From Psychrobacter sp. DM4 (lineage in GTDB: Bacteria > Pseudomonadota > Gammaproteobacteria > Pseudomonadales > Moraxellaceae): a stretch of 32,000 nt of DNA. Below, piece by piece: positions 1-14,338 of this stretch. Made by a program: the position numbers and the translations under genes. Location of the stretch: the NCBI RefSeq assembly GCF_051307035.1, contig NZ_CP195536.1:600001-632000 (forward strand). The letters run 5' to 3'. The notes beneath the pieces were generated by a model. The model was not told the origin of the DNA and did not search any database. It was given only the letters and a program-made list of their open reading frames with translations. Numbering within the stretch: the first letter of the stretch is position 1; each line of letters starts with the position of its first letter.

Positions 1-180
1 TATCATAAGGTAAAGGAGCAGTTGTCAAAGGTTGTCAGCTGTGTTGTTATCTACACTGATCAAGATCAGGAATATAAGCTGCCAAACAGTTTAACCATTG
101 GCAAATCGATTGAAGGCTTTACTAAATTCTATAAGGTACCGATTGCTGTTCCTGTGCTTAAAAATCAGACTTCCTTATAA
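1..180 (+). CDS. 3' end of an unidentified gene truncated by the window edge (59 codons + TAA)
   Basis: Frame 1 is open from nt 1 to TAA at 178-180 (...VVIYTDQDQEYKLPNSLTIGKSIEGFTKFYKVPIAVPVLKNQTSL*). It is absent from the ORF track because it has no start inside the window. Composition is protein-like. No family recognised. Confidence 0.35.
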   Translation, partial: YHKVKEQLSKVVSCVVIYTDQDQEYKLPNSLTIGKSIEGFTKFYKVPIAVPVLKNQTSL

Positions 181-229
181 ACAATATCGTCAAATGGGAT
201 TAGTTACCACAACCAACTTTCAACAATCT

Positions 230-275
230 TGGTCACAAAATGGTCACCGTTTGGTCACCGAGCAGGTGGTCACCG
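230..275. repeat. Four direct TGGTCAC(CG) repeats (iteron-like), spaced 11, 11 and 15 bp
   Basis: TGGTCACAA at 230-238. Exact TGGTCACCG at 241-249, 252-260 and 267-275. Each GGTCACC is itself a GGT-N-ACC mini-palindrome. Confidence 0.85.
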
Positions 276-410
276 ATTTTCAAAAGATAGAGCGCATGCG
301 CAAAAACTTATCATTCATACATTGTTAAAGAGTAGACTATTTCGTAAATGTCAACCTAGGGGAAACATACAGTCCTTATAAATAAAGGCTTTAAGAGGAG
401 GTTTAGACAC

Positions 411-441
411 AAAAAAACCTCAAACAATATAATGCTTGAGG
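411..441 (-). terminator. Rho-independent terminator downstream of the displaced tRNA-Arg 3' end
   Basis: The minus strand reads CCTCAAGCATTATATTGTTTGAGG followed by TTTTTTT (stem 418-423/436-441, T-run 411-417). It lies about 30 nt past the CCA end of the tRNA fragment at 474. Confidence 0.6.
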
Positions 442-473
442 CAAAACTTGACTAAAACTTAAGTTTTAAATAG

Positions 474-518
474 TGGTGCGCTCGACAGGGATCGAACCTG
501 TGACCCTCGGCTTCGGAG
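474..518 (-). repeat. attL: displaced 3' portion of tRNA-Arg (anticodon loop to CCA), not a complete tRNA
   Basis: TGGTGCGCTCG (474-484) and GACCCTCGGCTTCGGAG (502-518) are identical to 8539-8549 and 8567-8583. The T-arm between them differs. There is no matching 5' acceptor strand or D-arm upstream. Confidence 0.85.
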
Positions 519-552
519 AGTCTAGGCCGTCTAGCTATAACTATTTACACTA

Positions 553-1368
553 TTATTCAATCAACGATAAAGCAGCCACGTATTGAGCATAATCTAAATG
601 CGCGTAACGCATAGTGCTGTCGATGTCACCATGTCCTAGCAGATCCTTAACCGTATAAATACCAACGCCATTTTGCACCAACCACGACGCATAAGTATGT
701 CTTAAATCATACATAGTGCATACGACACCTGCGCGCTTTTTGCACCTGTTAAAGCTCTTTGATAGGCTCTGGTAACGATCATTTGTACGTTTATTAGTGA
801 AAACATAACGATCTGAGCGTGTTTTATTTTTTAACACATTAAATGCGGTATCATTTAAATACTTGTACATCGTCCTTTTGCTTTTGCTGTAGTAATTCCT
901 CACTACAAACTGCCTTTTATCAAGATGCACATTTGACCATTCAAGCGTTAATAACTCGATAGGCCTACAGCCTGTCATCGTCAGCAGTACAATAAAATCA
1001 TGCAAATCTTGGTTGCGTGTTACCAATGCAGAGATAAGCAGCTTATTGTACTGCTCTTTATTTAGATAATTTGCTATATAGTCCTCCTCAATAAACTTTA
1101 CCTTATTAAATGGATTATTTAATTTAATCTCATAATCTTCTCTGACTCGATTTATCGCTGCTCTTGCAAAACTACACTCACGGTTTATAGTGCTATTGGA
1201 GACAGTGACGCGCCTTAGCTGTGCATACTCTTTTACGTCTTTTTTGCGTAAATCCTTTAAATCATAGGCATCAAAAAAGCGCAGGTTATGCGCTCGGTAA
1301 TGATACTTATGCTTTGTTAAATGATAATCTTGGTAATACTCGATAACCTCTGATAATTTAGTAAACAT
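553..1368 (-). CDS. int: Tyrosine recombinase / phage integrase (271 aa)
   Basis: Catalytic motifs seen are TGCRPIEL (Arg I), LRHTYASWLV (H-x-x-R) and LLGHGDIDSTMRYAHL (His...Tyr nucleophile). The stop codon is 35 nt from the att core. Confidence 0.9.
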   Translation of the reverse strand: MFTKLSEVIEYYQDYHLTKHKYHYRAHNLRFFDAYDLKDLRKKDVKEYAQLRRVTVSNSTINRECSFARAAINRVREDYEIKLNNPFNKVKFIEEDYIANYLNKEQYNKLLISALVTRNQDLHDFIVLLTMTGCRPIELLTLEWSNVHLDKRQFVVRNYYSKSKRTMYKYLNDTAFNVLKNKTRSDRYVFTNKRTNDRYQSLSKSFNRCKKRAGVVCTMYDLRHTYASWLVQNGVGIYTVKDLLGHGDIDSTMRYAHLDYAQYVAALSLIE

Positions 1369-1406
1369 AATCTAATCTCCTACACGCGAAATTGCGCGCG
1401 CATAGA

Positions 1407-2576
1407 CTAACTATTATCGACTATAGGCGGCGGTGGATTATTTATATAATCTACGTCATCGGCGCTTGAAACTGGATTGCTGGACGCATTAGAATTAAAA
1501 TTACTATTCTGTGGAGACTGTGCGCGCTGTACTGTGCGCTTATGCGGCCTTGTCTCTGGATTAAGCAACATGCTCATACATTTATCATGCGGTATATTTA
1601 GGCCGTCGCCGTACATGTTAAAAGCCATGCACTTATCACCACTTGCCATAATACTATCGGGCCTTATGGCGTCATGCTCTGCTACGTCAACGGTATAATC
1701 ATCTAAATACTTTTTATAGAGTGCTAATAGCTCGGCATCTGTCAGACCATCGACAGTGGGCAGATCAGGCGCAGAACTAGAACCCCCTGTGATAGTCTCG
1801 ACGTTATCGGTTGTCTCGTTCATCATTTCATCACCGCGATCTTCTGCACCTGCTATAAAGCCGTAAACCTTACCAACGCCCCAAATACCAGCAGGTATAG
1901 CAACGAGGATTAAGAAGACGACTACACCTATCATGATTTTAACTTTTTTAGGTATAGACTTCTTTTGGTCATGGGTGGCCCCATCATCTACAGATTTATA
2001 GAGCTTTGATGTTTCTTCGTCTAATTTATGGGTGAATGTATCGGTTGCATACTCTTTGTATGCGCCCTTGTCGTCAATAGTAGACATAGCACCCGTGAAC
2101 TTAAACACTTTAGGCTTGCCGTCTTTGAATGGGTGGCTAACGTGATAATGCACGTCAACAAGTTTGCGTAAAGCAGAATGTACAAAAGTAGGATCTTGCG
2201 TGATAATAACAATATTGATATTAGCATGGCGTATCATAGTCATTTCGCGTATGCGCGGATCACTATTGATCTTTGTACTAGAGTTATCGGCCCACTCTAA
2301 GCGCTGGGCCTCATCATAGAAAATGGTGCAATTACCTACGCCATTGCTATCCATTAAATCTTGCCAATCTTTAGGCGACGGCTCGACACCTGCTATGTTA
2401 AGACCTGCTATATCTGCATAAACTTTATGCTCTGGGTGATTATCAACGATATACTTTATCTGACTTGTTGCAAAATGCGACTTGCCCGAACCTTTTTTAC
2501 CAGTGATTAAAACTAGCCCTTGTCCTTTTACCAGTCCATTGTCTGACATAAAATCCCCTGCCTTAGCAAGCCCCAC
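1407..2576 (-). CDS. Zot-like / pI-type inovirus assembly ATPase
   Basis: N-terminal P-loop GKKGSGKS, Walker-B-like IFYDEAQ, and a single TM segment (IMIGVVVFLILVAIPAGIWGV) followed by a periplasmic tail, which is the pI/Zot architecture. The track start at 2576 is GTG. The ATG at 2549 (MSDNG...) has a better upstream GGCAGGGGA and may be the true start. An internal ATG (M215, 1932-1934) sits just before the TM, as for Ff pXI, but this parallel is speculative. Confidence 0.9.
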   Translation of the reverse strand: MGLAKAGDFMSDNGLVKGQGLVLITGKKGSGKSHFATSQIKYIVDNHPEHKVYADIAGLNIAGVEPSPKDWQDLMDSNGVGNCTIFYDEAQRLEWADNSSTKINSDPRIREMTMIRHANINIVIITQDPTFVHSALRKLVDVHYHVSHPFKDGKPKVFKFTGAMSTIDDKGAYKEYATDTFTHKLDEETSKLYKSVDDGATHDQKKSIPKKVKIMIGVVVFLILVAIPAGIWGVGKVYGFIAGAEDRGDEMMNETTDNVETITGGSSSAPDLPTVDGLTDAELLALYKKYLDDYTVDVAEHDAIRPDSIMASGDKCMAFNMYGDGLNIPHDKCMSMLLNPETRPHKRTVQRAQSPQNSNFNSNASSNPVSSADDVDYINNPPPPIVDNS

Positions 2577-2623
2577 GCAAGCAAAAGGGTTTTGCTCTTG
2601 CGTTGGGGCTTGCCGCGTCTGTT

Positions 2624-2905
2624 TTATTTTGCTGCTTTAGATAAGGATAGCTTAGTGGCTCCAATACTAGCGCGAATAACAACAGCACCGATAATAATAG
2701 ATATAGCTGTGTCCATACCGCCGATGTGTAGTATTGCTGCCATGTCACCAAGTGCACCAGCAGATGAAACAATTTTGTTAATATAAAAGTTAATAACAGC
2801 TAAAGAGATAGCACCTGATGCTATACCAAGCCCCATACCGACAAGTACACGTTTGCCCATACCGCCGAAAAGATATTGAAATAATTTAGCCAAAGCACCG
2901 ATCAT
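2624..2905 (-). CDS. pVI-like small hydrophobic minor coat/assembly protein (93 aa; DUF2523-like by size, position and hydrophobicity)
   Basis: It has multiple Gly/Ala-rich hydrophobic segments. It lies between the pIII-like gene and the Zot gene, which is the position of g6/ace in inoviruses. Only 2 nt separate it from the upstream pIII-like gene stop. Confidence 0.65.
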   Translation of the reverse strand: MIGALAKLFQYLFGGMGKRVLVGMGLGIASGAISLAVINFYINKIVSSAGALGDMAAILHIGGMDTAISIIIGAVVIRASIGATKLSLSKAAK

Positions 2906-2907
2906 TT

Positions 2908-4203
2908 TTAAGACTCCCTAGCCCTACCGCCTGATATGATGAGCATACCGCTTATCCATGCGCCCAAGATAACAGCAGGCTTTATCATGCTTGCAAAATG
3001 ACAAAAAGGGCCATAACTAATATCAAGTGTTGTTGATGCACCCATATAATCTATGGGTATAGATACATCAGCAGGACATTGGCCAGAAAAATCGACGTAA
3101 CCTGCGGTTGCTTTACCTTGCCAATCGCCTATATCTGGTTGCTGTATATAAACTTGTGTTTCTTCAGGCGATGGCTCCCATGCTTCCATCGACCAGTTAT
3201 AATAATCACAAGCTAGAGACGCCCAATCGCAAAATGCGGGAAGTTGAAACGCTGGTGCGTCTTGACCATCTTGTCCGTCTTGACCATCTTGTCCGTCCTC
3301 TCCATCTTGCGGTTGGTCTTCGGGATATAGATTGTCATCATCTGGATTTTCACCAGTTCCACCGTCAGGGTTTTCGGAGGTTACAGCGTCAGGGTCAGGC
3401 TGGGGAATGTCGCTATTTCTGTCAAACGCTTCATCGTGTAGTCCTGCTTCTATTTCATCTATTGCGTTATCTGATAGTGCTTCGAGAGCAGCAGATTTGC
3501 CATTATACGCGTCATCGACAATTTGCGATGCTACGTCTTCAATGGGTATTACTATGTCTTGCGGCGGAGTAGTGACAGACGTGATAGGTGCAGGTCTTTC
3601 ATCTGAGCCGTATTGCTCATGCACCATAGTGTAGTAACATGTGTCAGGCGCATCAGGCTTTATATTACCGCCGCTAAAATAATAGGGCTTATTTCTTCCA
3701 GCAATTGAATCATTTTTATAAACTGTATGAGCTCTACAAGCCGTTTCGGCAGTTGAATAAAGACGTTCGTTGCTGCCAACTTTGTATCCTACTTCTTCGT
3801 CTGATTTGTATTTTACGCCATTGTTTTCAGGATCAAGAATCCAATCCACAGCTTTACCAGCGATTGCGATAACAGCTTGTGTAATTGCGAGTGCAGGAGC
3901 ACGTTTAAGCAATGATTTGCCGATTGATTTTGGGTTGGGTGTTAGCTTAACAGTAGATTTTGCTGTTCTGTTTTGTACAATAGGTTTTCCGTCGGGGCCG
4001 AGCGTGGATACAGGGTATGTTTTTTGAGCATTTACTTCTAACGTCATTTTTTTGTATTGTGTATCAACATCTTTTTTTAAGTTCTCTAAACGCCATTTCA
4101 GGTGCTGTGGGTCGCCGTCGTGAGCAGCAAGGGCTGTTAAAGGAAAAAGAGCGAGAGATAAAGATAAAAAAACATAAAGGACTTTACGACACAAAATATT
4201 CAT
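2908..4203 (-). CDS. pIII-like minor coat / host-adsorption protein (431 aa)
   Basis: It has a signal peptide (MNILCRKVLYVFLSLSLALFPLTALA|AHDG), a central acidic Pro/Asp/Gly/Gln linker including (DGQ)n, and a C-terminal membrane anchor (AVILGAWISGMLIISGG). It lies downstream of the major coat gene, separated from it only by a 27-aa ORF. Confidence 0.7.
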   Translation of the reverse strand: MNILCRKVLYVFLSLSLALFPLTALAAHDGDPQHLKWRLENLKKDVDTQYKKMTLEVNAQKTYPVSTLGPDGKPIVQNRTAKSTVKLTPNPKSIGKSLLKRAPALAITQAVIAIAGKAVDWILDPENNGVKYKSDEEVGYKVGSNERLYSTAETACRAHTVYKNDSIAGRNKPYYFSGGNIKPDAPDTCYYTMVHEQYGSDERPAPITSVTTPPQDIVIPIEDVASQIVDDAYNGKSAALEALSDNAIDEIEAGLHDEAFDRNSDIPQPDPDAVTSENPDGGTGENPDDDNLYPEDQPQDGEDGQDGQDGQDGQDAPAFQLPAFCDWASLACDYYNWSMEAWEPSPEETQVYIQQPDIGDWQGKATAGYVDFSGQCPADVSIPIDYMGASTTLDISYGPFCHFASMIKPAVILGAWISGMLIISGGRARES

Positions 4204-4245
4204 AACTTAGTAAAGTCCTTTATATATTCTGTTAAATCTTACAAG

Positions 4246-4329
4246 TTAAAGATTGAGTGCATCACGTATTGCTACGATCATGCAAACAATGGCGATAACT
4301 TGTAAGATGAAGTCAGGGTGAAATGACAT
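4246..4329 (-). CDS. Unlisted 27-aa hydrophobic ORF (MSFHPDFILQVIAIVCMIVAIRDALNL), candidate pVII/pIX-like minor coat protein
   Basis: Its ATG overlaps the major-coat TAA (TAATG at 4331-4327), suggesting translational coupling. It has a single hydrophobic core and lies between the coat and pIII-like genes. It is below the ORF-track size cutoff. Confidence 0.45.
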   Translation of the reverse strand: MSFHPDFILQVIAIVCMIVAIRDALNL

Positions 4330-4574
4330 TAGAACGCAGTCTTAACCCATTTGAACACTTTAGCAGTCGCGTAAACTGACAAGACAGCCATACCAACAGA
4401 CCCAACAACAGCGACGAGGCCATTAATCATAGTGACAATCGGTGTCATATCGGGAGCGGCTACGCCCTCAGCATGTGCACCTGTAGTGACTAGGGCCATA
4501 GTGGCAGCCGTACCAACTTGATAATACTTGTTAGTAGCAGCACTTTTCACTTTTGCAATTTTACTTTGAGACAT
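4329..4574 (-). CDS. Major coat protein precursor (pVIII-like, 81 aa)
   Basis: A long leader ends in AHA|EG. The mature part (~46 aa) has an acidic N-terminus (EGVAAPD), a hydrophobic core (IVTMINGLVAVVGSVGMAVLSVYA) and a basic C-terminus (KVFKWVKTAF). This is the canonical inovirus coat layout. Confidence 0.85.
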   Translation of the reverse strand: MSQSKIAKVKSAATNKYYQVGTAATMALVTTGAHAEGVAAPDMTPIVTMINGLVAVVGSVGMAVLSVYATAKVFKWVKTAF

Positions 4575-4583
4575 GATCTTTCC

Positions 4584-4769
4584 TTAGAAGAATGAGCGTT
4601 TGATAAGTTTAATCGCTGCGACAGTGGCAAAAAGTACAGCGATGGAAAAAACAAACTCGGCCATTTGCTCATTAGTTAGTTTATAGCCACTGTGTTCAGG
4701 TACGGCTTGCCAAGATATGCAGTTATTTGTCACTGATAACTCTATACATTGATAAACCGTGTTATTCAT
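4584..4769 (-). CDS. Small phage membrane protein (61 aa), unknown function
   Basis: It has a C-terminal TM segment (FVFSIAVLFATVAAIKLI) and is tightly packed between the ssDNA-binding candidate and the coat gene, where small virion-cap proteins sit in inoviruses. Confidence 0.5.
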   Translation of the reverse strand: MNNTVYQCIELSVTNNCISWQAVPEHSGYKLTNEQMAEFVFSIAVLFATVAAIKLIKRSFF

Positions 4770-4779
4770 AATTTACTCG

Positions 4780-5184
4780 TTACGCTTTGGCAGGTGATGC
4801 CGTAGGTGGTCTTTGTTGCGACTTGTTACGCGGTACAAGCTCCATTTCTTGAGCATTGGCAAAGTCGGCCCATAAGATAACTTGGATCGGATCACCGTTT
4901 TTATCGCTAGTCGTCGTCATCTTAGTTTTAAGCTGGAACGGATATTCATGGTCATTAAAGCTGTGAATATCTGATGCTGTGCCGTATCTGTATTGCGCTT
5001 GAGCGACACCGCCAGACTTTAGGCCGTTGGCTTCTTTACGGTTTTTATGATTGACAAGTACGTTCACATAATCGTATTGCTCGTAGCTTGTCGGCTGTGC
5101 ACCGTGTACTGTAATGGTACGCTCGTAAATCTCGTCAGCGTCGTAAGTAATACCGTTTACTGTAATATCATTTTGATTGCTCAT
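4780..5184 (-). CDS. Putative ssDNA-binding protein (pV-like, 134 aa)
   Basis: This is a positional call: it lies immediately downstream of the replication initiator. Its size and Pro/Gln/Ala-rich C-terminal tail (QQRPPTASPAKA) are reminiscent of Pf1 gene 5 protein. No diagnostic motif verified. Confidence 0.45.
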   Translation of the reverse strand: MSNQNDITVNGITYDADEIYERTITVHGAQPTSYEQYDYVNVLVNHKNRKEANGLKSGGVAQAQYRYGTASDIHSFNDHEYPFQLKTKMTTTSDKNGDPIQVILWADFANAQEMELVPRNKSQQRPPTASPAKA

Positions 5185-5199
5185 TTTTTACACTCCTGC

Positions 5200-6501
5200 C
5201 TAGTGGCTTAGTTTTGGAATTGTGAGCGGATCTATCCGCTCGGGAACTGCCTTGTTTTTGATGTCTGTTAGCAGGTCAAGTAAGACCGTATCATCATCAT
5301 AAACTTGGCGGAAAAAGTATAAATATCTGCCATATTGATTTTTTAAAATGTCAATGGCTTGCTCAAAGGTCATCAGGTTTTGCTTTTCTACGCGCTCAAA
5401 CTTGCTAATATCTGTCTGACCATCGAAAATATGAAAGCATGGATAACTTGCTAGAAAAAATTGACTCGGATTTATTAGCACATCAAGCGGTATAAAAATG
5501 TCACGGCTTTTGTATTCAACTTCGGTGCGTAGCCATAAACTGTTTTTATCGCCTAATTGGCGGCCCTTTTCATAAATTCGGGTGAACTTGGAGGAGTCAC
5601 GAGAGCCTATGTATAGGCTTCTACCTTTACCGTTTGGCTTCTTCCAGTCTCCGCGGAACTCAACGGCTGGAGGTCTGCCACCATTAGTGAAACCGCCTAT
5701 AGTGTGCTGTTCATTGAACCAATCAATGTCGGTATACTCGCCATATAGATCATCATGAGCTAGATCAATACGTGTGATTTTTGGTTCTTGGCAATACAGG
5801 TTAAGCCATGCGTTAAAATGGCCCTCCCAGCCTTGTTTACCATACGTGCAACCTACGCCGTTAATTGAAATCATGATCGTATCGTTCTGGCCACCAATGC
5901 AGACAAAACCAGCATTGTGTTCTAGTGTGTAGCTACGCTCATAAAAATTGCGTCCAGATTTATTTTCTTTGTCGATGCCAAAACCAAATATATCGCGGAG
6001 GACTTGACCGACGTTATCTATAAGGGCGGATTGTCTAAAAGTTTCGTGATACTGTTCTGACGTTATATTGTTTTCAAAAGTGTACGCTTGCATAGTGATA
6101 CTTAGCCAGTCAATAACGCACTTTTCACCCTTTGCAGGTCTACGGATCATTTCAGTTTGGAGACCGTCGGCAGTTATCACGCCGTCAGTATTGAGCAAAG
6201 GATATAGCTTGTAATCGTCTGCTGTAGCTGTGACAGCGTTTAGGACAGTGGCGTCAAGCGCTGGATTTAAGAAAACTTGTTTTGTGGAATTTGCAACGCT
6301 TAGGAATGGAATGTCAACGTCAGGCGCTGGCAGCTTCTTATCTTGCTTAGCTTTTAGGCTTTGCATGTACGCTTTGGCGTTTTTGTCGAAGTCCGTCATG
6401 TTGTGCCAGTCCTTTGTTAGTCTTACCAATCCTAATTGTTGAAACTCTTTCAAAGTCGCTATGTTTATTTTGCTACTTCTCAAACCTTGCACTTTGACCA
6501 C
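5200..6501 (-). CDS. Rolling-circle replication initiation protein (Rep_trans / RstA / Cri-like)
   Basis: Motifs ITRIDLAHDD and SLYIGSRDSSKFTRIYEKG...LRTEVEYK match my recollection of the Rep_trans (pfam02486-type) signature. The track start at 6501 is GTG without an SD. The ATG at 6397-6399 (MTDFDKN...) is preceded by AAGGA 10 nt upstream and may be the real start. Confidence 0.8.
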   Translation of the reverse strand: MVKVQGLRSSKINIATLKEFQQLGLVRLTKDWHNMTDFDKNAKAYMQSLKAKQDKKLPAPDVDIPFLSVANSTKQVFLNPALDATVLNAVTATADDYKLYPLLNTDGVITADGLQTEMIRRPAKGEKCVIDWLSITMQAYTFENNITSEQYHETFRQSALIDNVGQVLRDIFGFGIDKENKSGRNFYERSYTLEHNAGFVCIGGQNDTIMISINGVGCTYGKQGWEGHFNAWLNLYCQEPKITRIDLAHDDLYGEYTDIDWFNEQHTIGGFTNGGRPPAVEFRGDWKKPNGKGRSLYIGSRDSSKFTRIYEKGRQLGDKNSLWLRTEVEYKSRDIFIPLDVLINPSQFFLASYPCFHIFDGQTDISKFERVEKQNLMTFEQAIDILKNQYGRYLYFFRQVYDDDTVLLDLLTDIKNKAVPERIDPLTIPKLSH

Positions 6502-6652
6502 GCTTGAATGTTCGCTCTTGGTACTTTACCCCCGTATTACTAGTGGGGAAATTTACGCTACACTCTCACGTTCCTTCACTTCCTCTTACTGTACTTATTC
6601 TTGCAAACTCTAAACTACGCTAACGCCCTTCGGTTGTTTGCTGTCTGTCTCA

Positions 6653-6695
6653 CTAAAAAGCAAAAACTGCACTGCGTTTGTTTTCTGCTTTTTAG
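6653..6695. promoter_or_regulatory. Long hairpin in the phage intergenic region (candidate origin or packaging structure)
   Basis: CTAAAAAGCA (6653-6662) pairs perfectly with TGCTTTTTAG (6686-6695). The stem is extended by AAAAC (6663-6667)/GTTTT (6680-6684) with a 1-nt bulge. Confidence 0.6.
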
Positions 6696-6807
6696 ATTCG
6701 TCAGCCCAGCCCCTATACAATCTCTTTTTGTTTTCTTAATTTTCTTATTTACTGCTAAACGCTTGTTACAATGCATTTGCGGAGCATTTGAGCTTTAGGG
6801 AAATTAC

Positions 6808-6845
6808 TCACCCTAGAGCTACGTTTTTAAGTAGCTCTAGAGTGA
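6808..6845. promoter_or_regulatory. 15-bp-stem hairpin in the phage intergenic region (candidate origin or packaging structure)
   Basis: TCACCCTAGAGCTAC (6808-6822) pairs with GTAGCTCTAGAGTGA (6831-6845) with one mismatch and an 8-nt loop. The core 10 bp are perfect. Confidence 0.65.
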
Positions 6846-7309
6846 AATCCCTTGCTTGATCATCGTTTAATGCTCTCGCATCGCACCATCGCACATAGGG
6901 CCATTGGTCATAGTGTTCTGCCAATGGAGGATTGATTACGACAACACACGCCGCCTTTGCACAGTCAACCCGCCCACAACAACAAGCCTACGCAAGCAAG
7001 GGCAAAAAACACCCAATATACCGCTACGGCATCACATGTCATGGTCACTCATACTGTCGCTAGTTATGCAAAGTTACCCCAGTAACTAGCTTGCTTATCA
7101 AGTCGTGTCGCCCTGTCGTCACTTAGTCCTGCCACCAGCGACACGCTTTATATCATTTGCTTACACTGGATGCTTGAGCCACCAGCGCAACAATCTCATA
7201 ACTAGTATAGTTCCGATAATCACTGCAAATATTTGTAGCAGTGGCGGTATAACTGCCAAAAAAGCATCAGATAGCAATACGTGCATGTTTAAAAAAGGCT
7301 GATAATTCA

Positions 7310-8155
7310 TCATGCGACCCCTTGCAACTGTTTGACCTTGCGATATAGTCTAGCCGTCTTAATCGCATCACCTGCGGCCCTATGATTAGGCACATCACGG
7401 CAGTCAATACGCTGCTGTGTGCAAGCATTTGTGAGCGTAGTCCATCTATAGGAATGATGATAGTCAGACCATATGCGGCCATAATTACGCGCGTAGAATT
7501 GCATCAAACAAAAGGTTTTGTTATGTGGGAATAAATCGGTAAACTCTTTCGGGATAGGGGAGTCAAACGCACTTGCTACAGACTGTCGGATCATGCGCGT
7601 ATCAAAGTCAGCATTATAAAAAACAATAGTCTTTGTACCAATAAGGCTTGATAGCTTGGCCCATATTTCGGCAAAAGATGGGGCGTCTTTGACATCAGCG
7701 TTTGTTATGCCGTGAACGTCTGTAGCGGCCTTAGATATAGGCTTGGTAGGTTTTACAAGAGACTCAAAGAGGATATTTTCATTTTCATCAACAACGGCAA
7801 TCTCGACTATTTCAGCGTCACGATCTAAACCTGTCGTTTCTGTGTAAATAAAGATGCCCTGTCCCTTAGCTGCTGACTTGGCAGGAGCAGGGGCAGGGGC
7901 AGGGCAAGAGGTTTGCTTTTCATCGGCTACGATGTCAGCAATCTGGTTTGCCTTGGCAAATGCGACAAAAGCAGAATAAGATTTGATTTTTGCTACTTGG
8001 TTTTTTAGCTCAAGCGGCAATTTATAAAGGTTGAGCTTTTTACCAGTTTTGACACTATTAACACTTACTACCAACGTTTCGCCCTGTGAGCCTTTAAGAC
8101 CAATAACATGAGCATGTGCGGTGCGTGTCTTTGTGTAAAAAGATTTATGTTCCAT
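7310..8155 (-). CDS. Phage cargo protein: unknown N-terminal domain + PAPAPAPA linker + DEDDh (DnaQ/epsilon-like) 3'-5' exonuclease-like domain with an atypical Exo I motif
   Basis: Exo I region is IFIYTETTGLD (Y104-x-E106 where D-x-E is expected). Exo II is VFYNADFD (D185). Exo III is HRAAGD (H258, D263). Residues 1-84 match no family I recognise. It is the first gene of the leftward operon next to the operator cluster. Confidence 0.7.
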   Translation of the reverse strand: MEHKSFYTKTRTAHAHVIGLKGSQGETLVVSVNSVKTGKKLNLYKLPLELKNQVAKIKSYSAFVAFAKANQIADIVADEKQTSCPAPAPAPAKSAAKGQGIFIYTETTGLDRDAEIVEIAVVDENENILFESLVKPTKPISKAATDVHGITNADVKDAPSFAEIWAKLSSLIGTKTIVFYNADFDTRMIRQSVASAFDSPIPKEFTDLFPHNKTFCLMQFYARNYGRIWSDYHHSYRWTTLTNACTQQRIDCRDVPNHRAAGDAIKTARLYRKVKQLQGVA

Positions 8156-8190
8156 TGTTATTCACTCCTGCCTAGTGATAGAATTTAATT

Positions 8191-8278
8191 AAACCCTTTT
8201 GGGATTAATCCCTTTTGGGAATATAGCTAGATAAAAAAATATCTGTCTATAGCTGTCATTATAATCCCATTTGGGAAT
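8191..8278. promoter_or_regulatory. Three-operator switch with divergent promoters between the repressor and the leftward phage operon
   Basis: Sites are AAACCCTTTTGGGATT (8191-8206), AATCCCTTTTGGGAAT (8207-8222) and AATCCCATTTGGGAAT (8263-8278), each with a TCCC-N4-GGGA core. Candidate rightward -10 is TATAAT at 8260-8265, overlapping site 3. Candidate leftward promoter is -35 TAGACA (8249-8244), an 18-nt spacer, and -10 TATATT (8225-8220), overlapping site 2. Confidence 0.6.
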
Positions 8279-8298
8279 ACTAGCAAGGAGTATTTACA

Positions 8299-8604
8299 AT
8301 GATTACGCAATTATTTGATAAAGCAGCAAAAAAGATAGGGAGCCAAGAAGAACTAGGCAAAAGACTTGGTATCAATCAAGGCAGAGTATCAGCGTTTAAG
8401 AACTACAAAACTGGAGACAAGCGAAAGCCTAATGATGAGACCATACTTAAAATAGCCGACATACTAGGGCTAGACAAAGGAGAAACACTATATAAAGCTA
8501 AATTAGAACTAGAGCCAGAACAGGCCTATTTATGGGAATGGTGCGCTCGGCGCGATTCGAACGCGCGACCCTCGGCTTCGGAGGCCGATACTCTATCCAA
8601 CTGA
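8299..8604 (+). CDS. Cro/C1-type HTH transcriptional regulator (putative prophage repressor); 3' end reads through attR into the tRNA antisense
   Basis: HTH_3-like segment is GSQEELGKRLGINQGRVSAFKN...ETILKIADILGLD. It is preceded by AAGGAG and is divergent from the phage structural/replication operon. Residues 81-101 are encoded by DNA antisense to tRNA-Arg. Confidence 0.75.
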   Translation: MITQLFDKAAKKIGSQEELGKRLGINQGRVSAFKNYKTGDKRKPNDETILKIADILGLDKGETLYKAKLELEPEQAYLWEWCARRDSNARPSASEADTLSN

Positions 8605-8615
8605 GCTACGAGCGC
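8539..8615 (-). tRNA. tRNA-Arg (anticodon CCG), 77 nt with encoded CCA; carries attR in its 3' half
   Basis: Hand-folded cloverleaf: GCGCTCG TA GCTC AGTTGGATA GAGT A TCGGC CTCCGAA GCCGA GGGTC GCGCG TTCGAAT CGCGC CGAGCGC A CCA. Confidence 0.9.
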
Positions 8616-8952
8616 TTAACATTGATGCTGTCATATGTACTGGCTAGTATGGGTAGCATAGACCGCAAAAATTTAAGAGCGCTTAGTCTAGCAAATAACG
8701 CTACCAAAACCAATAAGTGATGACAGCTATCACGGCTATTTACGAAAAAACAGCCGAGTCAACAAACAGGCATGGCAATCTACTGCGCTTTTCCCTTATA
8801 ATGTTAACAATAACGAATTTGATCTATATTCACCGATTACACTTGCGCGAAAGAATGCAAAGACCGTCTATTGTTGATGTTTGTATTATTCATCGAATCA
8901 TAAAGTCTTTGTATGACTTGCCATTTGTGTATGTAATAAGAGAACGTGACGA

Positions 8953-9630
8953 ATGAGAAAAGTAGTGATGTTATCGGCAGCTGCCATTCTAGGAATTGCT
9001 AGTATCGCGGTGAGCCAAGCTGAAGAGGTTGTAGATACAACGACAGTCACTGAGGTAGCACAAGCAGAAGAAGTGGTCGAAAACGCACCAGAGGTACTTG
9101 GTGACGACGTACAAGCTGCTGCGGATACGACCGATGCCGCGCTTGTGGATGCAGAGGCAGCTGACGTTGCTGCTGGTACAGATGAGACCGCTGCTGTCGA
9201 CGAGAACCTCGAAGCGACTGCGGCGGCTGAAGAAGAGCCTATTCCAGAAGACACCCCACAAGTACAAAAACTGGTCGCGCTCTATCCCAATCTTGTCGCT
9301 CGTATCCAGCCAGTAGGCCGCGTTTGTTTTGAAGAAGGCGAGATTTGTGACGTAACCGTTAGAGCTGCAAGCGCGTCAGCTGACGGTGGTCCACGTGATG
9401 GCGCAGCCGTTTATAGCGCGGTTTGCCAGACGTGTCATGCATCAGGCTTGCTCGGCTCGCCTATGTTAGGTGATGCGGGTGCTTGGGGTCCACGTATCGC
9501 TAAAGGTGCTGATACACTATACACCCATGCGATTCAGGGTTTTAACGCGATGCCAGCTAAAGGCGGCGCTGATATCCCAGACGAAGAAGTACAGAACGCC
9601 GTTGATTATATGATCGCGCAGGCCAGCTAA
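8953..9630 (+). CDS. Cytochrome c5-family protein with signal peptide and long acidic low-complexity linker
   Basis: Haem motif CQTCH, then GLLGSPMLGD...NAMPAKGG typical of cytochrome c5. N-terminal signal MRKVVMLSAAAILGIASIAVSQA. About 90 aa of Ala/Glu/Asp/Val/Thr-rich linker. Confidence 0.85.
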   Translation: MRKVVMLSAAAILGIASIAVSQAEEVVDTTTVTEVAQAEEVVENAPEVLGDDVQAAADTTDAALVDAEAADVAAGTDETAAVDENLEATAAAEEEPIPEDTPQVQKLVALYPNLVARIQPVGRVCFEEGEICDVTVRAASASADGGPRDGAAVYSAVCQTCHASGLLGSPMLGDAGAWGPRIAKGADTLYTHAIQGFNAMPAKGGADIPDEEVQNAVDYMIAQAS

Positions 9631-9688
9631 ATACTACTCTAGCCTTGAGCTGATTTGCAAAAGTAGCACTAGACCCAAAGTCATAAAA

Positions 9689-9724
9689 AAGCGTCTATTT
9701 CCATAAAGAGATAGGCGCTTTTTT
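9689..9724 (+). terminator. Rho-independent terminator after the cytochrome c5 gene
   Basis: AAGCGTCTAT (9689-9698) pairs with ATAGGCGCTT (9711-9720) with one G-T pair, followed by a T-run to 9724. Confidence 0.7.
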
Positions 9725-9864
9725 GTGGTCTATCGCTATCAATTGATATTACTAATACCGTCCTTACTACGATGTACGCTTGAAATACACCATAGGTAGC
9801 CTCACTTTAAGGGCTACACTATTTGTTATAAAAATAAATACTATTACTTAATAAAGAGGTTTGC

Positions 9865-10827
9865 ATGTCTGAGGTACCAGCACTCGAAATTAAAAACTTA
9901 TCAAAAACCTATGATAATGGGTTTTCAGCGCTAAAAGGCGTTGATCTGACAGTACCGCAAGGTGGGTTCTTTGCGTTGCTTGGGCCCAATGGCGCAGGCA
10001 AATCGACGATGATTGGTATCATAAGCTCTTTGTTTAAACCTACTACGGGTAGCGTAGAGATTTTTGGTACGGATCTATTGGCTAACCCTTCTGTTGCCAA
10101 GCAGTACCTTGGTGTAGTACCGCAAGAATTTAACTTTAATATGTTCGAAAAAGTCGAAGACATCCTAATTACTCAAGCAGGATACTTTGGTATTTCTGCT
10201 AAAGATGCTAAGCCACGTGCTGAGCGTTTGCTTAAAGCATTAGGGCTGTGGGATAAACGTGATAGCAAATCGCGCGAACTCTCCGGCGGTATGAAAAGAC
10301 GTCTGATGATTGCACGTGCGCTCATTCATAAGCCTAAGCTATTGATACTTGATGAGCCAACAGCAGGCGTCGATATCGAGCTGCGCCGTTCTATGTGGGA
10401 GTTTATGCAACAGATCAACATCGAAGAAAATACGACTATTATTCTGACGACTCACTATTTAGAAGAAGCCGAGCAGCTATGTAAGCGCATCGCTATACTA
10501 GATCATGGTGAGATTCGTATTAACACGGAAATGAAAGATTTGCTAGCACAGCTATCGGTAGAAACCTTCGTTTTAGATTTGACCAAACCGCTTACCCAGC
10601 CTTTGGTTATTGAGCAGGTTACAGAGATCGCGCAGCCAGATGAGATGACTGTTGAAGTTACTTTGACGCAAGGCGAGACACTAAACTGTGTGTTTGAGCA
10701 GTTGACGGATCTTGATATTGAAGTCGCGAGTATGCGTAACAAGTCTAATCGATTAGAAGAGTTATTCATGCGTTTGGTTGAAAAAAATATTCAAAGTGCT
10801 GATAGCATGAAGGAGGCAGGATTATGA
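9865..10827 (+). CDS. ABC transporter ATP-binding protein (ABC-2 exporter type)
   Basis: Walker A GPNGAGKST, signature LSGGMKRR, Walker B LLILDEP. The stop overlaps the next start (ATGA at 10824-10827). Confidence 0.9.
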   Translation: MSEVPALEIKNLSKTYDNGFSALKGVDLTVPQGGFFALLGPNGAGKSTMIGIISSLFKPTTGSVEIFGTDLLANPSVAKQYLGVVPQEFNFNMFEKVEDILITQAGYFGISAKDAKPRAERLLKALGLWDKRDSKSRELSGGMKRRLMIARALIHKPKLLILDEPTAGVDIELRRSMWEFMQQINIEENTTIILTTHYLEEAEQLCKRIAILDHGEIRINTEMKDLLAQLSVETFVLDLTKPLTQPLVIEQVTEIAQPDEMTVEVTLTQGETLNCVFEQLTDLDIEVASMRNKSNRLEELFMRLVEKNIQSADSMKEAGL

Positions 10828-11633
10828 GAGAGCCCGTCGTTGTAGACCCGAATGAGACCATGTCTTGGAGCAAAAAAGGGATCGCTTTTCGCACGATACT
10901 GCTAAAAGAGATTCGTAGAATTCTACGTATTTGGCCACAGACGCTTTTGCCTCCTGTAATTACGATGACGCTGTATTTTATTATCTTTGGTCGGATGATT
11001 GGGGATAGAGTCGGCGAGATGGGCGGCGTACCTTACATGCAGTTTATCGTGCCTGGTCTTATCATGATGGCGATCATCACTAATAGTTATTCCAATGTGG
11101 TTTCGAGTTTTTTTAGTGCCAAATTTACGGCAAGTATTGAGGAGCTTTTGGTTTCACCTGTCTCTAAACATGCTATTTTGACCGGTTACGTTAGTGGTGG
11201 GATTTTTCGCGGTTTGGTGATTGCAATCATTGTCTCTATCGTCGCCCTGTTCTTTACAGAGCTTGGTATTGAGCATTTATTTGTCACTGTATTTACCGTT
11301 TTGGGAACCTCTATCTTGTTCTCACTAGGCGGCTTTATTAACGCCGTATACGCACGCTCATTCGATGATATCTCTATTATTCCAAGCTTTGTATTGACGC
11401 CACTGACTTTTTTGGGTGGGGTGTTTTATTCAATGGAAGACTTATCGAGCTTTTGGCAAAATGTCTCACTATTGAATCCTATTGTCTATATGGTCAATGC
11501 CTTTCGTTATGGTATTTTGGGCTACTCAGACGTCAATGTCTGGTACTCAATGATAGCGATCTTTGTATTTTGCGTCATCTTTTATGTCATTTGTTATCGC
11601 TTACTGAGTGATGGCTCACGTATTCGCTTGTAG
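10824..11633 (+). CDS. ABC-2 type transporter permease
   Basis: About six hydrophobic segments. Translationally coupled to the upstream ATPase. Confidence 0.85.
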   Translation: MREPVVVDPNETMSWSKKGIAFRTILLKEIRRILRIWPQTLLPPVITMTLYFIIFGRMIGDRVGEMGGVPYMQFIVPGLIMMAIITNSYSNVVSSFFSAKFTASIEELLVSPVSKHAILTGYVSGGIFRGLVIAIIVSIVALFFTELGIEHLFVTVFTVLGTSILFSLGGFINAVYARSFDDISIIPSFVLTPLTFLGGVFYSMEDLSSFWQNVSLLNPIVYMVNAFRYGILGYSDVNVWYSMIAIFVFCVIFYVICYRLLSDGSRIRL

Positions 11634-11658
11634 ATCATTTTAGAATTAGGGTATTGAG

Positions 11659-12522
11659 ATGAGTATTCACGGTATCTTGGGTGAGCAAACTACAGACTAT
11701 CCTACTGAGTATAGTCCAGAGACGCTATATCCGATTGCCCGTAGCATGGGGCGTAATGTGATCGGCTGGCAAGACGACAAACTAGCTATGGGTGTTGATT
11801 GGTGGCAGGCATTTGAGATGTCATGGCTTAATCTACAAGGTATCTCGCAAGTAGCGATGGCCCGTTTTAGCGTGCCTGCAAGCTCGCCTTATATTATCGA
11901 GTCCAAGTCCCTCAAGTTATATCTCAATAGTATCAATTTTACTGAGTTTGCTAGCTGGCAAGACGTACGAATTTTGATCGCAAAAGACTTATCAGCCTTT
12001 GCACAAGCAGAGGTACAGGTTGAGCTGTTTGCATTAGACGATGAGCAGTCGCGGTTGATGATTGGCCAACCTAAAGGCATCTGTATCGATGAGGCTTTGG
12101 CGAATACGACGGATAAAGTCAAACTTACAACCCACCCAGACGCCTCACTTTTAACGAGTAGTCAATCGAGCTCAAGTTCTGCTAAGAGCGATCATCATGC
12201 GTATCATTTTTACTCTAATCTGCTGCGTAGTAATTGCCCCGTGACCAATCAACCTGACTGGGGGACATTGGCGGTTGAAATAAGCAGTGACATAGAGGTA
12301 GACGATGCGGCTATGCTGCGTTATATTCTAAGCTTCCGTCAGCACAACGGCTTTCATGAGCAATGCGTGGAGCAGATATTTGCGGACTTGAGTCAGCACT
12401 ATCAGCCAAGTCAATTAATGGTTCGAGCGTGGTACACGCGTCGCGGCGGTATCGATATCAATCCTTGCCGCGTTAGTGATTTGAGCTTACTGCCTAAACC
12501 GAGTCGATTAATTCGTCAGTAG
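11659..12522 (+). CDS. queF: NADPH-dependent 7-cyano-7-deazaguanine (preQ0) reductase, bimodular type
   Basis: QueF motif IESKSLKLYLNS, SNCPVTNQPDWG (catalytic Cys region) and FHEQCVE. The 287-aa length fits the type II enzyme. Confidence 0.85.
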   Translation: MSIHGILGEQTTDYPTEYSPETLYPIARSMGRNVIGWQDDKLAMGVDWWQAFEMSWLNLQGISQVAMARFSVPASSPYIIESKSLKLYLNSINFTEFASWQDVRILIAKDLSAFAQAEVQVELFALDDEQSRLMIGQPKGICIDEALANTTDKVKLTTHPDASLLTSSQSSSSSAKSDHHAYHFYSNLLRSNCPVTNQPDWGTLAVEISSDIEVDDAAMLRYILSFRQHNGFHEQCVEQIFADLSQHYQPSQLMVRAWYTRRGGIDINPCRVSDLSLLPKPSRLIRQ

Positions 12523-12560
12523 TTGAAGAAGCCAGTTTTTAGTATTTAGCTTACAAAAAA

Positions 12561-12591
12561 AGCGCTTATCTTATGGAGTAAGATAAGCGCT
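12561..12591. terminator. Bidirectional rho-independent terminator between convergent queF and proS
   Basis: A 13-bp perfect stem AGCGCTTATCTTA/TAAGATAAGCGCT with loop TGGAG, flanked by A6 upstream and T5 downstream. Confidence 0.8.
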
Positions 12592-12619
12592 TTTTTATGT
12601 TTAAACTTTATAGCTTGAA

Positions 12620-14338
12620 TTATTTGCTAATCACTTTAGCCAATACTTCGTCACGGCTTAGCATCTGCTTTTCGCTATCGCGGCGATTGACGTACTCGTA
12701 CTTATCCTCTGCCAAGTTGCGATCGGAGACGACGATACGATGCGGAATACCAATGAGTTCTAAATCAGCAAATTTGACCCCTGGGCGCTCGTTGCGATCA
12801 TCGAGTAGCACATTGACGCCTTGCGCTTTTAGTTCTTCATATAGCGCCGTCGCCGTTTGCATGACGGTATCTTCTTTGGATTTCATCGGTACGATAACGA
12901 CCTCAAAAGGTGCGATCGAATCAGTCACGCTTGGCGTTTGCGGCCACATGATGCCGTTTTCATCATTGTTTTGCTCGATAGCAGCGGCAATAATGCGGCT
13001 AACACCAATACCATAGCAGCCCATCATAAGCGTGACAGGTTTGCCGTCTTCGCCGGAGACCGTACAGCCCATTGCCTGCGAGTATTTATCACCCAATTGA
13101 AAGATATGGCCGACTTCGATACCGCGTTTGATTCTGAGTGAGCCTTTGCCATCTGGCGAAGGGTCGCCTTCCTTGACATTACGTACATCGACGATACGTG
13201 TGATGCTAGTATCGCGCGCCCAGTTCATACCGATAGTATGCTTGTTGATCTCGTTAGCCCCAGAGACAAAATCTGATAGGGTAGCCGCCGCGCGATCAAC
13301 GAACACTAGCATGTCTAAATCAACACCGATGTAGCCTTTGTGCAGGCCTGCCGCTTTTAGCTCTTCATCTGAGGCCAAAGTTAGCGGCACGTTTGCCTCT
13401 TCTATCTTTTCAGCTTTTACGGTGTTCAATTGATGATCACCGCGCAAGACAATGGCGATAAGCTGCGGCGTATCGTCTTCTTTATGACCATGAACGATCA
13501 AGGTCTTAACCGTAGTCGCTAGCGGAATGTCTAAATGCTCTGCGACCATTTTACAAGTGGTCATGTCTTCTGTTAAGACGTCCTCACGCGCCTGCGTTGG
13601 CGGCTGGCGCTCAGCTGTACTTACCGATTCGGCAAGCTCTACATTAGCGGCATAATCAGAGGAGTCAGAGAAAGCAATATCATCTTCGCCACTATCAGCA
13701 AGTACATGAAATTCATGCGAGGCAAACCCGCCTATAGAGCCTGTATCCGCTTGCACCGCCCGAAAGTCTAAGCCCAGACGAGTAAAGATACGAGTATAAG
13801 CGTCGTACATATCGTGATAAGTCTTTGCCAGTGAGGCCTGATCGATATGAAAGGAGTAAGCGTCTTTCATAGTGAATTCGCGCGCACGCATCACGCCAAA
13901 GCGGGGACGTATCTCGTCACGAAATTTGTTTTGAATCTGAAAAAAGCTAATAGGCAGCTGCTTATAACTACGCAGTTCGCCTTGAGCGAGGTTAGTGATG
14001 ACCTCTTCGTGCGTGGGCCCTAACACAAAATCGCGATCATGGCGATCTTTGAACCGTAGTAGCTCAGGGCCATAATCATCAAAACGTCCAGTCGTCTGCC
14101 ACAGCTCAGCCGGCTGAGTCATCGGCATGAGCACTTCTTGTGCGCCGATACTTTGCATCTCCTCGCGCACGATCTGCTCGACCTTTTGCAAGATACGTAA
14201 ACCCATAGGCAACCAGATATAGAGTCCAGAGGCGATCTTGCGAATAAGACCGGCTCTGACCATCAATTGACTTGAGGCGATATCAGCATCGCTTGGCGTT
14301 TCTTTTAGCGTGGCAAATAAAAACTGACTGGCTTTCAT
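12620..14338 (-). CDS. proS: Proline--tRNA ligase (bacterial type with editing insertion)
   Basis: 572 aa. Class II motifs seen are [17 protein letters not shown] and [10 protein letters not shown]. The N-terminus [18 protein letters not shown] is typical of ProRS. Confidence 0.95.

Follow-up and report, generated by a model that had tools for sequence, protein, structure and literature searches.

A Modular DEDDh Exonuclease-Like Protein of Psychrobacter-Type Inoviruses and the Apparent Repeated Loss of Its Catalytic Residues

Introduction

Psychrobacter sp. DM4 carries an inovirus prophage of about 8.07 kb, integrated at a tRNA-Arg gene. The first gene of its leftward operon lies at positions 7310-8155, on the minus strand, of a 32,000-nucleotide (nt) stretch of contig NZ_CP195536.1, which is referred to here as the window. 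This gene encodes a protein of 281 amino acids (aa) with a DEDDh exonuclease fold, in which the first catalytic aspartate is replaced by a tyrosine. Our main finding is that purifying selection has, in all likelihood, preserved the DEDDh fold through repeated losses of its catalytic residues, within a lineage-specific family that occupies one slot of the phage genome. The single Tyr matters less than what the family shows as a whole, in which an enzyme fold has repeatedly become a non-catalytic module that is still constrained and still sits in one inovirus slot. The family represents a natural experiment, with intact, singly mutated and fully dead versions in one slot, all under selection. 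Hydrolysis is probably not needed for the conserved job of this early modular protein, which is encoded by a virus with a single-stranded DNA (ssDNA) genome. The product of the DM4 gene belongs among the DEDDh exonucleases of mobile genetic elements that carry an auxiliary domain.

The DEDDh Domain and the Tyrosine in Exo I

The protein is composed of three modules, namely an orphan N-terminal beta-sheet/helix domain, a Pro/Ala tether and an epsilon/ExoX-like DEDDh domain. Its open reading frame (ORF) begins with ATG, with GGAG as a good ribosome-binding site 10 nt upstream, and NCBI lists the same product, at 100% identity, as "3'-5' exonuclease [Psychrobacter sp. DM4]". Fifty homologues went into the AlphaFold2 model, whose mean predicted local distance difference test (pLDDT) score is 87.5; the 10-residue blocks of the exonuclease domain mostly average above 90. 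Pfam RNase_T (PF00929) recognizes residues 105-271 at E 1.4e-20 and 74.9 bits, above its cutoff of 24, and the domain matches PHROG 192, "DNA polymerase exonuclease subunit", at E 2e-43. The best Foldseek matches are to the E. coli Pol III epsilon exonuclease domain (2gui, 1j53; E 1e-10 to 1e-9, best 8.5e-11, target template modeling (TM) score 0.80), with further matches to S. thermophilus DnaQ and to the ExoX, DinG and PolC exonuclease domains. PDB entry 3mxi, the TREX1 D18N mutant, is also among the fold matches of the 281-aa protein. A preliminary description of this DNA, made from the letters alone, had proposed a DEDDh fold, and the profile match, the model and the epsilon matches all confirm it.

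The preliminary description had also read a Tyr in place of the first catalytic Asp, with Exo II (NADFD) and Exo III (HRAAGD) kept. Both readings stand. In sequence alignment, Y104 pairs with the first catalytic Asp of the PolC exonuclease domain 2p1j ("vlDfETTGLD") and of ExoX 4fzx ("IDTETCGL"), and it likewise falls on an Asp in all 7 single-domain homologues aligned. Exo I is Y104-T-E106, in which the D-x-E carboxylate pair is incomplete, Exo II is Y180-N-A-D-F-D185, and Exo III is H258-R-A-A-G-D263. The motifs of the substrate pocket, including T107, G109, the HGITN helix, N181 and H258, are intact. The DM4 copy shares its fold, Exo II, Exo III and E106 with the DEDDh or DnaQ-like exonucleases, but differs from them in the first Asp and in the fusion to an orphan N-terminal domain, and most members of its family are without the full catalytic set.

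The Exo I Asp of DEDDh enzymes bridges both metal ions (D12 in epsilon, D18 in TREX1), so Y104 should abolish or greatly reduce hydrolysis. When this residue is replaced, as in epsilon D12A and TREX1 D18N, activity is lost and binding persists; TREX1 D18N, altered at the same position as Y104, binds DNA without cutting it. By analogy, it is on balance likely that the Y104 copy has lost hydrolysis, or most of it, and has retained its 3'-end pocket, such that 3' termini would be bound and hardly trimmed. An altered chemistry, in which the E106/D185/H258/D263 set or Tyr104 itself supports hydrolysis or some other reaction, is highly improbable. Four of the five catalytic residues and the pocket motifs are intact and the remainder of the domain is under strong constraint, but first-Asp replacement is inactivating in the two DEDDh enzymes just named, and no other family member has a Tyr at position 104. 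The possibility raised earlier, that a different residue supplies the Exo I carboxylate, finds no candidate. The acidic differences from P0002, the homologue with the closest exonuclease domain, are D157, E163 and E204, which are common in homologues or lie within a variable insertion, and none evidently compensates for Y104. A switch to the DEDDy type was ruled out as well; the DEDDy Tyr belongs to Exo III and Y104 to Exo I, which makes a DEDDy-like mechanism unlikely.

The protein is not a DnaQ in the strict sense. Epsilon is defined by a C-terminal segment after its exonuclease domain, which binds the alpha subunit. The DM4 chain stops about 10 residues past the Exo III helix, and both this alpha-binding segment and a clamp-binding motif are absent from it. 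Every NCBIfam equivalog cutoff is missed by far, including those of DnaQ (NF004963, 60.4 bits against 245; TIGR01406, 57.4 against 222.7). A motif "QGILF" in the catalytically dead relatives, which fits the clamp motif Q-x-x-L-F, was discounted, as it overlaps the first beta strand and reads "QGIFI" in the DM4 copy.

Loss of Catalytic Residues across the Family

The catalytic set was read at positions 104, 106, 185, 258 and 263 of an alignment (A1) of 50 sequences, made up of 46 two-domain proteins, DM4 included, and 4 single-domain proteins (Table 1). One to five catalytic residues are lost in about 33 of the 45 other two-domain homologues, with three to five lost in each of P0008, P0011 and P0016. 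The large dead-type clade mostly bears an 11-residue deletion of the HGITN helix in addition. In a neighbor-joining tree, DM4 and the partly degenerate sequences fall among the intact ones, and the replacement residues differ between them. These patterns suggest at least five independent catalytic losses, together with one ancestral loss for the large dead-type clade.

Table 1. Catalytic residues (positions 104, 106, 185, 258 and 263) in alignment A1
Sequences	n	Residues
Single-domain homologues	4	DEDHD
Two-domain, intact	12	DEDHD
DM4 protein	1	YEDHD
P0025	1	DEDSD
P0008	1	AKNKD
P0011	1	RSDSD
P0016	1	SEVRS
Dead-type clade	~29	EESNN, EDSNN, EETNN, EESST, EESKS, EQSKS or EECNS

The dead-type domains, judged from their substitution patterns, are under purifying selection and are not pseudogenes. 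Their pairwise ratios of nonsynonymous to synonymous substitution (dN/dS) are 0.10-0.34, at proportions of synonymous differences (pS) of 0.29-0.54. Between the DM4 exonuclease domain and that of its nearest relative, locus L001, dN/dS is 0.05 at a pS of 0.61 and 18% nucleotide divergence.

It could be argued that the gene is a decaying moron, with D104Y as a fresh lesion that inactivated an exonuclease which the phage can spare and is in the process of losing. The Tyr is indeed unique to DM4 among the 50 aligned sequences, the nearest relative encodes Asp at codon 104 (GAT in L001, TAC in DM4), and the protein cluster that holds the product has one member from one contig. However, the ORF is full length, and of the 17 among 184 residues of the exonuclease domain that differ from P0002, 16 are non-catalytic and many of these are conservative; the low dN/dS with L001 argues the same way. 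Additionally, intactness and constraint persist in relatives that have lost every catalytic residue, over more than 25 diverged sequences. Decay is quite improbable on these grounds, and a "simple inactivated moron" is the wrong reading because members without catalytic residues remain under purifying selection. Of the two signs that had been named for this reading, a strain-specific Tyr is seen, as the Tyr is found in DM4 only and P0002 has Asp, and a uniform Asp among homologues is not, as most two-domain members have lost several or all of the catalytic residues themselves. The earlier suggestion of an inactive binder of 3' ends or nucleotides is supported in spirit, and the interpretation that it belonged to is supported in part. 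The binding of 3' ends may not be the shared function of the family either, because the dead-type clade has lost part of the nucleotide pocket.

The N-Terminal Domain and the Linker as a Breakpoint

The N-terminal domain is predicted to contain four beta strands, two helices and a short strand (model pLDDT 77). Searches of Pfam, PHROGs and PADLOC yielded no significant match for residues 1-80, and Foldseek yielded none for the domain in the PDB or BFVD. A phmmer search of these residues against 1.84 billion representatives returned six matches, of which one is the query protein, two are clear relatives and three are weak (E 3e-5 to 9e-4), and a hidden Markov model of the domain found essentially nothing beyond the two-domain family in all fetched loci. 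The top PDB fold matches are weak (PUR-alpha repeat III and PBF-2/WHY1-3; E 0.4-1.5, query TM 0.35-0.42), and the modeled resemblance to the PUR/Whirly beta-beta-beta-beta-alpha arrangement is a lead only. The orphan N-terminal region and its PAPAPAPA linker, as first described, are in agreement with these searches and with the low pLDDT of the linker. The domain is fast-evolving; its helix 60-70 (SAxVxFAKANQI) is conserved and its sheet hypervariable, with pairwise dN/dS values of 0.24-1.0 that are near saturation and imprecise.

The linker, C84-P-A-P-A-P-A-P-A-K93, lies in a stretch (residues 78-97) with pLDDT below 50 and is predicted to be disordered. Its consensus, C-P-x-P-A-P-A-P-A-K-S, is the most conserved stretch of the protein, synonymous sites included; the identity at third codon positions is 0.62-0.65 in the linker against 0.35-0.5 elsewhere in the gene. 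This conservation points either to a recombination hotspot that is kept homogeneous or to an unrecognized element at the DNA or RNA level.

The two halves of the DM4 protein have different nearest relatives. Residues 1-95 are 92% identical to P0003, whose exonuclease domain is of the dead type. The exonuclease domain has its nearest relative in P0002, and with that protein residues 1-95 share only 35% identity. By sequence comparison, the DM4 protein is a chimera of an N-terminal module from a dead-type relative and an exonuclease module from a catalytically intact type, to which a private D104Y is added, and the linker is the apparent breakpoint of this shuffling. Across the loci, the N-terminal type is uncoupled from the types of the repressor, Rep, Zot and integrase. 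N-terminal domains that are 89-92% identical occur with repressors that are 60% identical, and conversely, a repressor that is 79% identical occurs with an unrelated N-terminal domain. In loci L019 and L021, Rep is 86-88% identical and the N-terminal domains are 67% identical or unrelated. The N-terminal domain thus appears to be shuffled independently of repressor, Rep and exonuclease type.

Distribution and Gene Order

The full-length homologues number forty-odd and are found nearly all on metagenome contigs of 1-10 kb, several of which, at 8.3-8.7 kb, look like whole phage genomes. A scan of the genome collection found one further species representative only, Psychrobacter sp. T6-5. The gene order is identical in every contig that is long enough to judge: a divergent helix-turn-helix (HTH) gene, the exonuclease-like gene, usually a hydrophobic ORF of 49-50 aa, a gap of 0.7-0.8 kb, Rep_trans, the structural genes, Zot and the integrase.

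Because these loci had been found with the exonuclease-like protein as bait, a second sample of IMG/VR contigs was anchored on Rep, with at least 1.4 kb of upstream sequence required of the distant set. The gene is present in 5/5 contigs with a Rep at least 67% identical. No DEDDh homologue of any kind was found in about 40 contigs with a Rep 36-55% identical and that length of upstream sequence. Two metagenomic loci (L010 and L012) with a Rep about 51-55% identical do carry the gene, and its distribution at this level of Rep identity is patchy. From these comparisons, the gene appears to be fixed in one Psychrobacter-type inovirus lineage and not to be part of the canonical inovirus core set. 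The term "cargo", under which it was first described, does not fit, as all the related Psychrobacter-type inoviruses that were recovered have the gene at the same position, and it is present throughout the close Rep-anchored set and has counterparts in Vibrio.

Relatives in Vibrio Inoviruses, Tailed Phages and Plasmids

The nearest single-domain relatives are proteins of about 190 aa (186-207 aa), about 40% identical in the exonuclease domain; they too are inovirus products, and their genes occupy the equivalent position. Gene order in V. cidicii and in a V. cholerae prophage adjoining rtxA runs DUF3693 regulator, RNase_T, small ORF, Rep_trans, DUF1293, pIII, DUF2523 and Zot. The published phages VP24-2_Ke (genus Fibrovirus; QGM12442.1), vB_VipaK (QJD55413.1) and vB_Vipa4291 carry a stand-alone "3'-5' exonuclease" in the same slot. 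Such an enzyme is thus already among the annotated genes of a few published inoviruses. The inovirus literature that was searched holds no discussion of these enzymes; the word exonuclease is absent from a V. parahaemolyticus inovirus paper (PMC10790759), and an A. baumannii filamentous-phage paper mentions ExoI as a reagent only.

The Vibrio genes resemble that of DM4 in their setting (divergent regulator, exonuclease, small ORF, Rep_trans) and form its sister group in the neighbor-joining tree. They differ in that they are single-domain, without the N-terminal module and without the long intergenic region before rep, and an ORF of 62-72 aa stands in place of the 50-aa hydrophobic ORF. The four Vibrio-type sequences in the alignment are all DEDHD, unlike the DM4 copy. 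Three V. cholerae contigs (L025-L027, positions 7401-13487) carry a CTX-like inovirus by rtxA, in which the DUF3693 regulator and an RstA-like Rep enclose an intact DEDDh exonuclease of 192 aa and an ORF of 67 aa; in L025, a PI-PLC-X domain gene then follows.

Homologues of the exonuclease domain are also found beyond the inoviruses. Orf81 of phage 186, annotated as "not essential", is an early-operon gene that precedes the one for the rolling-circle replicase A. It differs from the DM4 protein, as do the PHROG 192 members of P2-like and other tailed phages, in belonging to another virus realm and in its domain arrangement. Related exonucleases occur on more than 3000 plasmids; they include E. 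coli IncI/K and Acinetobacter plasmid proteins of 270-282 aa with an unrelated N-terminal region of about 100 residues and a DEDDh domain. On the E. coli IncI/K plasmid (L032, 2691-3539), an intact-DEDDh "3'-5' exonuclease" follows the yacAB toxin-antitoxin pair near repA. On the Acinetobacter plasmid (L033, 5719-6534), another with an intact DEDDh set is flanked by genes for a Y-family polymerase and for Abi. The Exo II Asp of the E. coli plasmid protein is D189, near the D191 that is mutated in "EcTon", which hints that the two may be related.

The Small ORF, the Intergenic Region and a Possible Role in Replication

Between the exonuclease-like gene and rep, 808 nt were counted. The preliminary description had given this gap as about 800-900 nt of non-coding DNA; the long conserved gap is there, but positions 7161-7313 code for a 50-aa ORF, and about 660 nt remain intergenic. 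The small ORF is hydrophobic (mean hydropathy up to 2.65 over 15-residue windows), and an ORF of 49-50 aa with 43-54% identity follows the exonuclease-like gene in most relatives, being absent in L008 and L012. No intrinsic terminator-like site was found between the exonuclease-like gene and rep, and an Rfam scan of positions 1-9000 of the window gave nothing above family threshold besides the tRNA.

In an alignment of 11 phages with Reps 50-88% identical, the intergenic region contains long, near-invariant blocks and is more conserved than the flanking genes. It probably holds replication and packaging signals. A 15-bp hairpin within it is invariant at its base, with changes in the upper stem that are compensatory. 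The invariant stem-loop CCCCC-ACTAGTAATAC-GGGGG, close to rep, is a candidate Rep nick site; we take its loop to resemble the nonanucleotide of HUH-Rep origins, although the Rep here is Rep_trans. The conserved region and its stem-loop represent a candidate origin for an unstudied inovirus group.

This setting brings in the main rival explanation, in which the protein is an accessory of rolling-circle replication that handles or protects the 3'-OH made by Rep at the origin, or recruits the host replisome, with active forms trimming the end and dead forms holding it. The gene stands directly upstream of the ori-like region and rep, as one operator-controlled unit, and homologous exonucleases precede rolling-circle initiators in the Vibrio inoviruses and in phage 186. 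The family is abundant on conjugative plasmids, which make ssDNA by nicking, and structurally the protein is closest to replicase proofreaders, namely epsilon and the PolC exonuclease domain. Against this, no co-variation of N-terminal and Rep types is seen, as L019 and L021 show, and relatives with a Rep at most 55% identical replicate without the gene. The alpha-binding segment of epsilon is absent and the DnaQ equivalog score falls far below its cutoff, the dead types are without part of the nucleotide pocket, and the phage 186 homologue carries the annotation cited above. A replication accessory is unlikely, although the switch or excision factor, simple decay and altered chemistry are less likely than it.

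The Operator-Bearing Promoter and the Question of a Switch

The gene faces a divergent repressor candidate of the Cro/CI type across 143 nt. Three copies of the 18-nt operator-like repeat TAATCCCTTTTGGGAATA in this region overlap two leftward promoter-like sites (10/12), so the position behind an operator-bearing leftward promoter, noted at the outset, is borne out. The placement of the repeats over the promoter-like sites is consistent with repressor control of the exonuclease-like gene, which would be expressed from the promoter opposite the repressor.

The first gene of a promoter that faces the repressor is the place where many temperate phages keep a switch, and it had been proposed that the protein acts as an excisionase or antirepressor. 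The broader form of this idea is a lysis-lysogeny switch or excision factor, whether antirepressor, Cro/Cox-like regulator or recombination directionality factor. The prophage has a tyrosine integrase, and no excisionase is recognizable among the annotated families of the prophage. However, the protein has no HTH, winged-helix, excisionase or other DNA-binding-family match in Pfam, PHROGs or NCBIfam, its N-terminal type does not track the repressor type, and the Vibrio inoviruses with an exonuclease in the same slot have no tyrosine integrase in the annotated set. A switch or excision role is improbable, and the earlier proposal is not upheld.

Inter-Element Conflict as a Possible Role

We favor an explanation in which the protein acts in conflict between genetic elements, by excluding competing phages or by countering host defense. 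The variable N-terminal domain would set the target specificity, and the DEDDh fold would serve as a nucleic-acid-end-binding or scaffolding module. D104Y would be one more step on a path of loss that was taken many times in the family. Taken together, the identity, the biochemistry and the conflict role make up an explanation whose chance we place a little short of even.

The known parallel is with the TONDOs, which are bacterial and mobile-element ISG20-like DEDDh exonucleases with unrelated auxiliary domains, borne on prophages or plasmids, that block ssRNA phages; the nuclease is dispensable in some of them, and one member requires a neighboring small ORF (Santos et al. 2026, PMC13344964). 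The DM4 gene resembles them in joining a DEDDh domain to an unrelated auxiliary domain on a prophage, with the small ORF 7161-7313 adjacent. It differs in that it occupies a repressor-controlled, replication-proximal slot and not a defense island, and the two are likened by architecture, not by sequence. A TONDO-like role in inter-element conflict is possible, by analogy, because the auxiliary domain is fast-evolving and recombining, catalysis is dispensable, a small ORF is adjacent, and the genes are carried on phages and plasmids. Precedents for pseudo-exonucleases also exist: the "PXL" nucleic-acid-binding module of PML (10.64898/2026.02.19.706916) and the exonuclease-like domains of DinG-like proteins (PMC11981726). 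In these the DEDD fold appears to be retained for binding without catalysis, but their contexts are eukaryotic or cellular.

Several points weigh against the favored explanation. The position beside the ori-like region and rep, under a promoter that faces the repressor, suits replication at least as naturally as defense. ISG20 is a weak sequence match of the DM4 protein (E 0.24). Tyr104 is known from one genome, and a sequencing error or a very recent lesion is possible. The HGITN helix, which is deleted in the dead-type clade, is part of the nucleotide pocket. The dN/dS values of the N-terminal domain suffer from the saturation already mentioned. The loss count of at least five rests on topology and on the differing replacement residues, because the neighbor-joining tree is without support values.

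A more far-reaching form of the conflict explanation is rather doubtful. It holds that a marine, cold-adapted inovirus lineage turned an ancestral, active DEDDh exonuclease, still intact in the Vibrio inoviruses, into a pseudo-enzyme effector of an arms race, equipped with a hypervariable specificity domain and a small membrane protein. Such an effector might exclude pilus-dependent ssRNA or ssDNA competitors, or neutralize a host defense that acts on 3' ends, and the D104Y allele would be a transition intermediate caught in the act. If competitor exclusion or counter-defense is true, the DEDDh immunity proteins of mobile elements extend to the filamentous phages, and a conflict role would help to explain why catalysis is sometimes dispensable in such proteins.

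The Prophage and Its Integration Site

The features of the prophage are listed in Table 2. The listed prophage genes are all on the minus strand, the repressor excepted. The attachment (att) core GACCCTCGGCTTCGGAG, of 17 nt, is repeated at both ends of the element, which gives its length of about 8.07 kb.

Table 2. Features of the prophage in the window
Feature	Positions	Strand	Remarks
Left att core GACCCTCGGCTTCGGAG	502-518		Within displaced tRNA-Arg 3' fragment (~470-518)
Tyrosine integrase	553-1368	-	PF00589, E 3e-25; last prophage gene
Zot	1407-2576	-	
DUF2523	2624-2905	-	
TspB-like adsorption protein	2908-4203	-	
Coat B	4329-4574	-	
Rep_trans rolling-circle replication initiator	5200-6501	-	PF02486, E 8e-24
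Conserved intergenic region, candidate origin/packaging	6502-7160		Between small ORF and rep
Stem-loop CCCCC-ACTAGTAATAC-GGGGG	6529-6549		Invariant; 28-48 nt upstream of rep; candidate nick site
15-bp hairpin	6808-6845		Invariant base; compensatory changes in upper stem
Hydrophobic small ORF, 50 aa	7161-7313	-	ATG overlaps exonuclease-like stop codon (ATGA)
Two-domain exonuclease-like gene	7310-8155	-	281 aa; first gene of leftward operon
DEDDh (DnaQ/epsilon-like) exonuclease-fold domain, residues 101-281	7313-7855	-	Pfam, alignment, AlphaFold2, Foldseek
D263	7367-7369	-	Exo III Asp, kept
H258	7382-7384	-	Exo III His, kept
D185	7601-7603	-	Exo II Asp, kept
E106	7838-7840	-	Exo I Glu, kept
Tyr104 codon TAC	7844-7846	-	At position of Exo I metal-bridging Asp
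Pro/Ala linker, residues 77-100	7856-7927	-	C84-PAPAPAPAKSAAKGQG; predicted disordered
Orphan N-terminal domain, residues 1-76	7928-8155	-	AlphaFold2 models; no significant family or fold match
Three 18-nt operator-like repeats TAATCCCTTTTGGGAATA	8190-8279		Overlap leftward promoter-like sites
HTH_3 (Cro/CI-type) repressor candidate, divergent	8299-8604	+	Pfam HTH_3, E 9e-7; PHROG 638 transcriptional regulator, E 4e-11
tRNA-Arg(CCG), integration target	8539-8615	-	Holds right att core 8567-8583

The 3' end of the repressor ORF runs into the tRNA 3' half supplied by the phage, such that its last 20 or so residues are translated tRNA. These C-terminal residues would differ in the excised circular form. 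The tRNA-Arg site is recurrently used, because a neighborhood of ABC transporter and cytochrome c genes also flanks the related prophages in L001, L006 and L022. In DM4, the cytochrome c gene by the att site (8953-9630, plus strand) encodes a long low-complexity N-terminal region, rich in Ala, Glu, Asp and Val, ahead of its heme-binding domain.

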